In this document: one piece after another, positions 60,443 to 60,877 of the stretch
How positions within the stretch are numbered: position 1 is the stretch's first letter
Layout: each line of letters begins with the position of its first letter
Origin: Bradymonadia bacterium
Lineage (GTDB): Bacteria; Myxococcota_A; Bradymonadia; UBA7976; UBA1532
NCBI GenBank assembly: GCA_046290225.1
Contig: JBKAGE010000036.1
Coordinates: 300,918-364,917, forward strand
Direction of reading: 5' to 3'
Length of the DNA stretch: 64,000 nt
Made by a program: the position numbers and the translations under genes
Notes under the pieces: generated by a model
What the model was told of the DNA's origin: nothing
The model's database searches: none
Seen by the model: the letters and a program-made list of their open reading frames with translations, nothing else

Positions 60443-60877
60443 CTCGCTTCGCTCGCAGAGAGAGTTTTTCGGGCACGGGCACGGGCACGGGCACGGGCAC
60501 GAGTTTCACGGGTGTGGACAGTGCAGCCTGAGGCTGCATGTCTTGGAGCGAGTGTAGGCCTGCGTAGCCGGCCGGAGGGAGCGGAAAGACACCCGGAGGG
60601 CTGTCCACTGGTCAACCTGACCCATGGCCCTGCATGACTCCGCTCGTGGGTGTGTGATGGTGGAGGCTCCACTCGGCCCCATGTGTCTCTCATTGGAGGT
60701 TTTGACCTCCATACACCCCAAGACCTGAACTCTCAGGTCGTTCTGAAACGCATCATTCCAGCGTCAGTCGTAGCCTTTGCCCTGAGTCATGCAGGGCCAC
60801 GGGTTCACACCCGTAAAACTCGTGCCCGTGCCCGTGCCCGTGCCCGTGCCCGAAAACTGATCTGCGAGCGAAGCGAG
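60443..60877. repeat. Non-coding element copy B, from the same family as 55481..55811. Its core is inverted relative to copy A and it carries a nested insertion of about 100 bp.
   Basis: The arms are CTCGCTTCGCTCGCAGAGAGAGTTTTTCGG(GCACGG)n... at 60443 onward and ...(CCGTGC)nCCGAAAACTGATCTGCGAGCGAAGCGAG ending at 60877. Hexamer tracts lie at 60471-60500 (+) and 60822-60851 (-). The core 60630-60760 is the reverse complement of 55600-55720. The extra segment at about 60520-60621 is bounded by GTGGACAG/CTGTCCAC. Confidence 0.85.

Follow-up and report, generated by a model that had tools for sequence, protein, structure and literature searches.

The two foldback elements examined here, copies A and B, are best understood as old paralogues, lying in opposite orientations, of a dispersed, non-coding family of REP/BIME/MITE-like repeats whose arms recombine, and we put the probability of this explanation at about 0.65. 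As part of the same explanation, and with the same confidence, the core of B, which runs backwards relative to that of A, is taken to be the other orientation of the element rather than the product of a programmed inversion. Both copies lie in the window, by which we mean the whole 64,000-nt stretch of DNA that was analysed (C36:300918-364917), and which belongs to a genome assembly of 8.58 Mb in 83 contigs, with 64.4% GC and a completeness of 99.4%.

Copy A is a short form of 331 nt (55481-55811), and the orientation of its core is taken as plus. Its left outer end (55481-55504, plus strand) consists of a stem of type T1 (TCGCTCCGCTGGC), the word AAGAGAG and TTTC; it is followed by a tract of five GGGCAC hexamers, the second of which reads GGGCAA (55505-55534, plus), and by a left inner arm (55535-55584, plus) made of GAGTTGAT, the variable 9-mer TCGGGTGTG, GACCCGTGGTCC and a stretch that begins with TGCATGAT. 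Beyond the asymmetric, non-coding core (55585-55705, plus) come the right inner arm (55706-55755, minus), a hexamer tract that reads GTGCCC on the plus strand and holds the mirrored unit TTGCCC (55756-55785, minus), and a right outer end composed of GAAAA, CTGATC (the GATCAG type) and TGCGAGCGAAGCGAG, a stem of type T3 (55786-55811, minus). The two arms (55501-55584 and 55706-55789) are 90% complementary over 84 nt.

Copy B is a long form of 435 nt (60443-60877) with its core on the minus strand, opposite to that of A. Its left outer end, which is on the 3' side of the core, carries a T3 stem (CTCGCTTCGCTCGC), AGAGAGAG and TTTTTC (60443-60470, plus), and leads into (GGGCAC)5 (60471-60500, plus), an arm segment GAGTTTCACGGGTGTGGAC that extends as far as the fixed insertion point GTGGAC^CC (60501-60519, plus), a single 102-nt module (60520-60621, plus; 100% identical to C38:256804-256913) and a left inner arm, CCATGGCCCTGCATGACTC, that pairs with 60784-60804 (60622-60640, plus). 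The core itself (60641-60783, minus) is reverse-complemented with respect to the family core in the orientation seen in A. It is followed by the right inner arm, on the 5' side of the core (60784-60821, minus), by a tract that reads (GTGCCC)5 on the plus strand (60822-60851, minus), and by a right outer end of GAAAA, CTGATC (GATCAG type) and TGCGAGCGAAGCGAG that is the same as the right outer end of A (60852-60877, minus). The arms of B (60466-60519 and 60803-60856) are 96% complementary over 54 nt, and there are further inverted repeats at 60620-60640/60784-60804 and 60440-60459/60861-60880. As single strands, A and B are predicted to fold with -131 kcal/mol (z = -17.7 against shuffles) and -163 kcal/mol (z = -16.3), respectively.

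The six genes next to the two copies encode PutA, an ECF sigma factor, a PEGA protein, a TSP3/MopE surface protein, a TPR/SH3 protein and BatD. Copy A, flanked by putA and by the sigma gene (which it precedes by 77 nt), is an exception in its placement, being the sole divergent case that we saw. Copy B lies 54 nt after the surface-protein gene, whose product has a C-terminal ...LLRRRR tail that we take to be MYXO-CTERM-like, which would make the organism Myxococcota-like.

The evidence that these copies belong to a large family comes from genome-wide searches, by which we count about 60 copies, about 46 of them bearing a core, and 125 arms. With blastn, the 121-nt core of A has about 46 genomic matches, at 70-86% identity. 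Hexamer tracts number 133 in a genome-wide scan, of which 125 stand in arm context and 97 have exactly five units, and among the 116 perfect hexamer microsatellites of four or more units in this genome, 110 have GGGCAC as their motif. The tracts form 34-38 close pairs, always with the G-rich tract first and the C-rich tract second, at spacings of 222, ~324, ~426 and 524 nt, which correspond to zero, one, two and three modules. Once oriented by their cores, the copies all follow a single asymmetric plan: the core, about 120 nt long and itself asymmetric, is flanked by arms of about 100 bp, and each arm is built, from the outside inwards, of an outer stem, AAGAGAG or GATCAG, a T-run, (GGGCAC)5, GAGTTGAT, the variable 9-mer and GACCCGTGGCCC, the far side being the mirror image. 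Within this plan the copies are mosaics that combine four types of outer stem (GTCGCTCCGCTGGC, GCGCTCCGCGGGT, CTCGCTTCGCTCGC or none), two end words, several types of 9-mer and from zero to three or more modules, and at least four kinds of sequence are found behind an identical type of arm. The parts differ widely in conservation, with mean pairwise identities of 0.997 for the tract, 0.52-0.56 for the 9-mer and 0.754 for the core. A reading of the tract as coding sequence, F(GH)5, was rejected: the T-run varies in length (TTTC, TTTTC, TTTTTC, TTTGTC), there is no conserved start codon, and the tracts are intergenic.

The copies are intergenic and lie at gene ends, often within 100 nt of a stop codon; among 27 scored for gene context, 16 are in convergent gaps, 11 in tandem gaps and none in divergent ones, and relative to tandem neighbour genes the core is oriented 5:5. 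No target-site duplication was found at the inverted-repeat boundaries of 34 pairs, and how far the inverted repeat reaches outwards differs between copies, its end lying 2 to 35 nt past the AGAGAG/GATCAG word. Just two protein genes were seen to lie between arm pairs, one for an IS4-like transposase, inserted inside a core on contig C50, and a PF05635 gene on contig C72. The genome gave no match to RAYT (Y1 HUH transposase, PF01797) in searches that did return matches in control genomes, and no IS110-type transposase; no autonomous element with the family's arms was found in the assembly, from which the interior of an element that inserts into the tract (see below) is also missing.

Searches further afield point to a family that is uncatalogued. 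Rfam 15 had no match in the window at gathering score, and across B it gave only sub-threshold matches at chance level, with nothing credible at E <= 10; B has no similarity to plasmids or phages. The full element is absent from all 40 relatives searched, none of which is of the same genus. An exact-protein look-up of the gene next to B, made for an orthologous locus, returned no match, and a scan of metagenomes yielded only a relative with 32% identity. None of the papers in the library searched mentions (GGGCAC)n repeats in bacteria.

An earlier note on this DNA had proposed that A and B are the two states of one invertible segment, and the observations behind this proposal were accurate. 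The core is indeed flipped: 55544-55738 and 60619-60813 are 81% complementary over 195 nt, and a blastn search with A against the genome matches B in reverse (81.8% over 264 nt, E = 1.8e-65). The outer ends do keep their sides, as direct repeats of 61 nt at 98% identity on the right (55751-55811/60817-60877) and of 45 nt at 93% on the left (55495-55539/60461-60505). The interpretation is what gave way. A and B are separate loci with cores that are only about 80% identical, and a tree of 32 cores places them in different clades with support of 98/96 and 100/99. Moreover, the end marker that keeps its side, read as a sign of inversion, turns out to be a segregating end polymorphism that occurs on either side of the core across the family. 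Both A and B have AGAGAG on the left and GATCAG on the right, and GATCAG is 5' of the core in five copies and 3' in six, counts that include three copies with GATCAG at both ends. In the five copies with one end of each type, GATCAG is 3' in three (including A) and 5' in two (including B). Given this 2:3 split of the discordant copies, two drawn at random would differ as A and B do in about 60% of draws. Symmetry with respect to core side also holds for the length of the T-run, the types of 9-mer and linker, and the presence of a module.

The second line of evidence concerns the arms. The co-variation noticed earlier within each copy is real: A has GGGCAA as second hexamer and GAGTTGATTCGGG in either arm, B has GAGTTT(C/T)ACGGG in either arm, and across the family the pattern is significant (34 pairs, p <= 1.5e-4). 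Outer stem type agrees between the two arms in 20 of the 34 pairs (10.1 expected, p = 1.5e-4), the T-run does so in 23 (9.5 expected, p <= 5e-5), and 12 pairs have identical 9-mers (2.2 expected, p <= 5e-5). For 23 short-form copies RNAalifold returned 87 pairs, 22 of which have changes on both sides, mostly in the columns of the 9-mer; one such change, C-G to A-U, is A's mirrored GGGCAA. How rare that substitution is can be judged from the 591 hexamers of the 125 arms, only nine of which deviate from GGGCAC, two of these being A's mirrored pair.

Of 1253 arm cells, 1146 (91.5%) are Watson-Crick, and the mismatches comprise 33 of G.U type, 30 of A.C type and 44 others, so that wobble pairs are not favoured on the core-sense strand (33 G.U vs 30 A.C, p = 0.80). 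We therefore read the co-variation as DNA-level transfer between arms and not as selection on one RNA strand; judging from these sequence patterns, gene conversion through a cruciform or hairpin, or template switching, are the likely routes. A concrete trace that supports arm exchange is the chimeric arm of a truncated paralogue at C36:1-194. Its core is 97.6% identical to that of B and its 3'-side outer arm is as in B, but its inner arm is that of B's opposite arm and the module is lacking. Arms and cores appear to have separate histories, because arm types are random over the core tree (23 changes of arm label, against a shuffled mean of 23.5). One pattern departs from symmetry: in copies with a T3 stem (CTCGCTTCGCTCGC) on one side and none on the other, T3 is at the 5' side of the core in seven of seven, and these copies are scattered, the tree forcing at least four independent positions. 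Such polarity argues against frequent random flipping, and simple symmetric exchange does not explain it either.

Exchange between arms also bears on the extra segment of B, which the earlier note had described as a nested insertion of about 100 bp. The segment measures 102 nt (60520-60621) beyond the short form and is a separable module, B's nearest paralogue being without it. Searched for as an independent repeat, it was found at more than 20 other arms, always at GTGGAC^CCGTGG and facing one way with respect to the arm, either as a single copy or as two to three or more in tandem with a period of 102. In paired copies it sits on the 5' arm in three and on the 3' arm in four. The 8-bp inverted repeat said to bound it does exist (GTGGACAG at 60514-60521 and CTGTCCAC at 60601-60608) but is not its terminal repeat, as the left half is mostly arm sequence and the junction in tandem arrays reads CCTGAC followed directly by AGTGCAG. 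Module copies are 90-100% identical genome-wide and thus more uniform than the cores; the module of B is 100% identical to that of its C38 counterpart, though the remainder of the two elements is just 90% alike. Two clade-mates of B (C38:256760 and C55:138) have modules on the 3' arm too, which favours the view that the paralogue of B lost its module, probably by conversion from its other arm, rather than that B gained one. The module shows no RNA structure better than shuffles (z = 0.12 and -1.04).

Taken as a mechanism, the preferred explanation would work as follows. The hexamer tract and its surroundings, perfectly identical over ~45 nt, would allow arms to recombine, mostly with the partner arm of their own copy, by gene conversion through a cruciform or a template switch, and less often with the arms of other copies. 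Such recombination would keep the two arms of a copy alike, would shuffle arm modules independently of cores, and would bring the 102-nt module into arms and remove it from them; that A and B share the sides of their outer ends would then be due to a polymorphic end module. We note that the difference in identity between tract (99.7%) and core (75%) could reflect selection for a function in the host instead of conversion.

The alternatives that invoke inversion fare differently depending on whether it is programmed or incidental. A programmed switch, in which a site-specific recombinase flips the cores of A and B and so changes the expression of an ECF sigma and surface-protein cassette, is an attractive reading given an asymmetric core between long inverted arms and the position of A just upstream of the sigma gene (77 nt) and of B just after the MYXO-CTERM surface-protein gene (54 nt). 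It nevertheless sits badly with some 60 family copies that lie mostly at gene 3' ends in random orientation to the genes, with arms of about 100 bp that are unlike short recombinase sites, and with the fact that the loci of A and B each assemble through at k = 99. There is no recombinase among the six flanking genes, and no sigma-70-like promoter hexamers were found in 55200-61100, where sigma-70-like sites were the ones scanned for. Together, the separate clades, the segregating end word, the 5:5 orientation, and the lack of an adjoining recombinase and of a sigma-70-like promoter make a programmed switch very unlikely; we found no evidence for inversion-switch control of the cassette, and that reading can largely be set aside. 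A sigma-54-type reading of GGCACGAGTTTTAC was also rejected, the -12 GC being missing as judged by eye. Contig ends gave no clear evidence for inversion: the start of C36 and B share exactly one 99-mer, which is the k of the assembler, and the start of C36, having a third flank of its own, is a paralogue of B. The ends of C17 and C76 also share exactly one 99-mer, a case compatible with either reading.

Flipping of cores over evolutionary time is a different matter. Here a rare crossover between arms, in the line leading to A or to B, would have turned round the core together with the inner arms and left the outer ends unmoved. The arms are well placed for this (84-100 nt, 90-96% complementary and only 121-283 nt apart), and both the lack of a fixed side for end type, T-run, 9-mer and module and the uncoupling of arm labels from the core tree are what it would produce. 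Gene conversion alone yields identical symmetry, however, and we found no pair of close paralogues that differ solely in core orientation; B's nearest paralogue keeps the same orientation relative to its 3' outer arm. The 7:0 asymmetry of the T3/none copies towards the 5' side, at no fewer than four independent tree positions, would moreover have been randomised by frequent flipping outside the tract. We therefore regard it as possible but on balance unlikely for A and B, and as compatible with the explanation by recombining arms, because crossover and non-crossover outcomes share one arm-arm recombination. Less probable is an origin of the family as gene-less derivatives of, or co-mobilised with, a cassette resembling an intervening sequence, in which the same arms surround a gene for a PF05635 four-helix bundle. 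Such a locus does exist at C72:82267-83362, where two inverted family-type arms (288 nt, 96% complementary) enclose a PF05635 gene of 141 aa (E = 3.3e-21); the arm consists of a T2 stem, AAGAGAG, a T-run, (GGGCAC)5, GAGTTTTACGG, two 102-nt modules and the inner arm. The genome's sole other PF05635 gene, on contig C77, is also placed between long inverted arms (~195 nt), but these are unrelated in sequence to the family arms. The gene is present in only one of about 60 arm-bearing loci, and the core of A and B has no similarity to it or its flanks beyond 22 nt of inner arm. PF05635 proteins have no known transposition activity. An element acting at the RNA level is, in our view, more doubtful still: copies would be transcribed in 3' UTRs or by convergent read-through, and the ~100-bp hairpin would be selected as an RNase III site, a stabiliser or a terminator. 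The position of copies at gene 3' ends, often 0-100 nt from the stop codon, fits this well, as do the 91.5% of Watson-Crick arm cells with many compensatory pairs, the very strong predicted folding of A and B, and a core hairpin in which TGGAGGTCAAAACCTCCA is swapped for TGAAGCTCAGAGCTTCTA in one copy with pairing kept, as read by eye. On the other side, G.U is not in excess over A.C on the core-sense strand (33 vs 30), Rfam has no match, the module alone folds like shuffles, and the signature of an intrinsic terminator was not found in A or B.

The hexamer tract, the most uniform part of the family, is also the target of a mobile element. One end of an unassembled element (GGACTCTCTATCAATTCGCAACC...) is found at 14 contig ends and its other end (...CAATCCAATTGGTACA) at 10; these ends are 100% identical and are all joined to a partial hexamer tract, with junctions mostly at unit boundaries that split the tract into parts of 1-3 and 2-4 units. 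Identical ends on partial tracts indicate a multi-copy element that inserts specifically into the tract, and this element is absent from the 40 relatives searched. The tract itself recurs well beyond this genome. More than 90 stretches in the genome collection contain the exact 34-mer TTC(GGGCAC)5G, with unrelated flanks; they come from Myxococcota, Planctomycetota, bins labelled Rickettsiales and Chlamydiia, a Legionella isolate and an Acidocella bin. In Myxococcota and Planctomycetota the 34-mer stands in intergenic hairpins, it is also found in the AT-rich Legionella and Chlamydiia genomes, and some of the cross-phylum matches fall in low-complexity coding sequence. Tracts with at least four units are present in 21 of 201 Myxococcota genomes, six of which have 11-28 matches; these counts are raw, and we do not claim over-representation. 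The persistence of five perfect units amid drift, the use of the tract as a homing site and the cross-phylum 34-mer might suggest that (GGGCAC)n is a module with a function of its own, recurring in different phyla as the stem of hairpin repeats, acted on by a conserved protein or by a hairpin/G-quadruplex switch, and driving arm copying, exchange of modules and occasional inversion of cores, possibly in a PF05635-associated cassette system. We consider this broader scenario improbable.

These results have several implications. The family offers clean traces of arm-to-arm transfer, namely a rare substitution mirrored in both arms, the chimeric arm of a nearly identical paralogue and the uncoupling of arms from cores, and is as such naturally suited to the study of recombination between inverted repeats that lie close together. 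It combines a tract that is predicted to be capable of forming a G-quadruplex and is under extreme constraint with the role of that tract as a target of insertion sequences, and it may help to explain the recurrence of hexamer-array hairpins in large GC-rich genomes. At a more practical level, the repeats account for many of the 83 contig breaks of the assembly.

How, then, does the family compare with known systems? Like the REP/BIME repeats of enterobacteria and pseudomonads, it is multi-copy, non-coding, palindromic and intergenic, it is biased to gene 3' ends and convergent gaps, and its copies are mosaics of a few recombining modules. The likeness extends to insertion, as REPs are the insertion sites of the IS110-family element ISPpu9 (PMC12288879) and the family tract is likewise the insertion site of a specific element. 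However, REP/BIME units measure 20-40 bp against about 100 bp for the arms of this family, which unlike them has an asymmetric 120-nt core, an invariant hexanucleotide microsatellite in each arm and a tandem 102-nt module. With the REPINs that RAYT transposases mobilise (PMC3116915, PMC3337134) it shares the arrangement of two inverted units as one hairpin-shaped, non-autonomous element, the evolution of copies within the genome and the absence of target duplication; unlike REPINs, its elements are 3-4 times longer, and no Y1_Tnp/RAYT gene was detected in the 99.4%-complete assembly. MITEs, such as Correia/NEMIS of Neisseria and ERIC/IRU of enterobacteria, resemble it in having terminal inverted repeats, a length of 0.1-0.4 kb, dozens of copies in both orientations, and combinations of end types that differ by copy, but here neither a target-site duplication nor a parent IS with the same ends was found, and the boundary of the inverted repeat is variable.

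For the behaviour of the arms, a relevant precedent comes from the genetics of Escherichia coli, where quasipalindromes are corrected by intramolecular template switching and closely spaced inverted repeats recombine. Judged from the repeats themselves, such correction would give mirrored changes like the GGGCAA/TTGCCC of A, and its crossover form would invert the intervening segment. Invertible systems such as fimS of E. coli, Hin/hix of Salmonella and the invertons of Bacteroides are alike in that inverted repeats surround an asymmetric segment adjoining genes for surface proteins or regulators. They occupy one or few loci, however, with short repeats, an internal promoter and a dedicated recombinase, whereas the present family has about 60 dispersed copies with ~100-bp arms, random orientation, no nearby recombinase and no promoter match. 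The ORF-bearing intervening sequences of 23S rRNA, whose PF05635 ('S23p') genes lie within a long stem, have a parallel in the family arms that enclose a PF05635 gene on C72; unlike them, the C72 locus is not in an rRNA gene, and A and B are gene-less. Overall, the family's structure and genomic position bring it nearest to REP/BIME mosaics, REPINs and MITEs; it departs from RAYT-REPINs and classical MITEs in the features that define these, and it is a new, uncatalogued family of a known kind, the bacterial intergenic hairpin or mosaic repeat.

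Copies A and B of the hairpin family bracket a set of ECF sigma, PEGA and MYXO-CTERM surface-protein genes (window 55481-60877). This arrangement is likely to be incidental, because the genome holds about 60 family copies, most of them at gene ends. The outer arms of A and B nevertheless share homology in direct orientation (61 nt at 98% identity), through which the 5-kb cassette between them could be deleted.

Elsewhere in the genome, the family appears in several variant forms. The core of one copy (C50:55564-57122, locus L019) is interrupted by roughly 1.3 kb of inserted DNA that encodes a 392-aa transposase of the DDE_Tnp_1 (IS4-like) type. 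On contig C72 (82267-83362; locus L020, 167-1262), two inverted family arms of 288 nt, with 96% complementarity and two 102-nt modules each, enclose a 141-aa PF05635 (23S_rRNA_IVP) gene; the genome's second PF05635 gene (C77:107219-107599, L149) has inverted arms of about 195 nt on either side, which are unrelated to those of the family. There are also solo arms, made up of AGAGAG, the T-run and the hexamer tract, for which a second arm is absent nearby (e.g., C7:15857, C37:247874, C46:8337 and C55:61166; and C34:548772, C50:74623, C51:52651 and C72:111430). Conserved sequence of at least two other kinds lies behind these arms, one starting GAGTTTTACGGATGTGGACTCCACGG... and the other GAGTCGAA.... 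Finally, at C8:42017-42403 an arm leads into three complete 102-nt modules and part of a fourth, which stop shortly before a predicted lipoprotein gene (MRWVVILLLGLGGCGG...). At this single locus, the GGAG at the Shine-Dalgarno position of that gene comes from the module's TCTTGGAG.

Some structures of the family coincide with breaks in the assembly. In two cases (the ends of C17 and C76; C36:1-99 and window 60641-60783) the overlap at contig ends is exactly 99 nt long: two contigs with different arms enter one identical 99-nt core segment, and the assembly lacks the sequence that would follow it. These overlaps reflect either near-identical paralogues or an inverted-repeat structure left unresolved by the assembly. 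Separately, the (GGGCAC)5 tract of the arms is interrupted by a multi-copy insertion whose interior is likewise missing. Its left ends (n = 14, GGACTCTCTATCAATTCGCAACC...) and right ends (n = 10, ...CAATCCAATTGGTACA) are 100% identical throughout, and every one lies at a contig end, outside the window (for example C77:170222-170311, C72:2-91, C47:1-82 and C35:1-81), with 1-3 hexamer units left on one side of the insertion and 2-4 on the other.

The hexamer tract itself extends well beyond this genome, with exact TTC(GGGCAC)5G present in more than 90 stretches from several phyla in the genome contigs collection (loci L023-L112; e.g., L070 7367-7424, L030 4630-4864, L031 708-780 and L082 161-206). 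It takes the form of plain hairpins, (GTGCCC)5-loop-(GGGCAC)5, in Planctomycetota, of (GTGCCC)4 and (GGGCAC)5 separated by about 170 nt in a Chlamydiia bin, and of nine units within an AT-rich spacer in Legionella, while in an Acidocella bin seven units, as read by eye, interrupt an IS3-type orfB between ...RQF and NRLWLSDFTY. In G019, a relative from the same family, units of about 82 nt are repeated in tandem between genes (L011, L014, L015), each containing a hexamer tract of (GGGCAC)5, (GGTCAA)n or (GGGCAA)n. In another Myxococcota genome, G203, tracts of (GTGCCC)4-5 and (GGGCAC)5 lie about 300-370 nt apart (L143, L144), with short outer inverted repeats (GGAGCCCGTCGCGC...) outside them and, between them, what appears by eye to be a truncated N-terminus of an IS5/IS1182-like transposase. 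In tract pairs of other genomes the GTGCCC tract comes first; all pairs in the genome studied here begin with GGGCAC.
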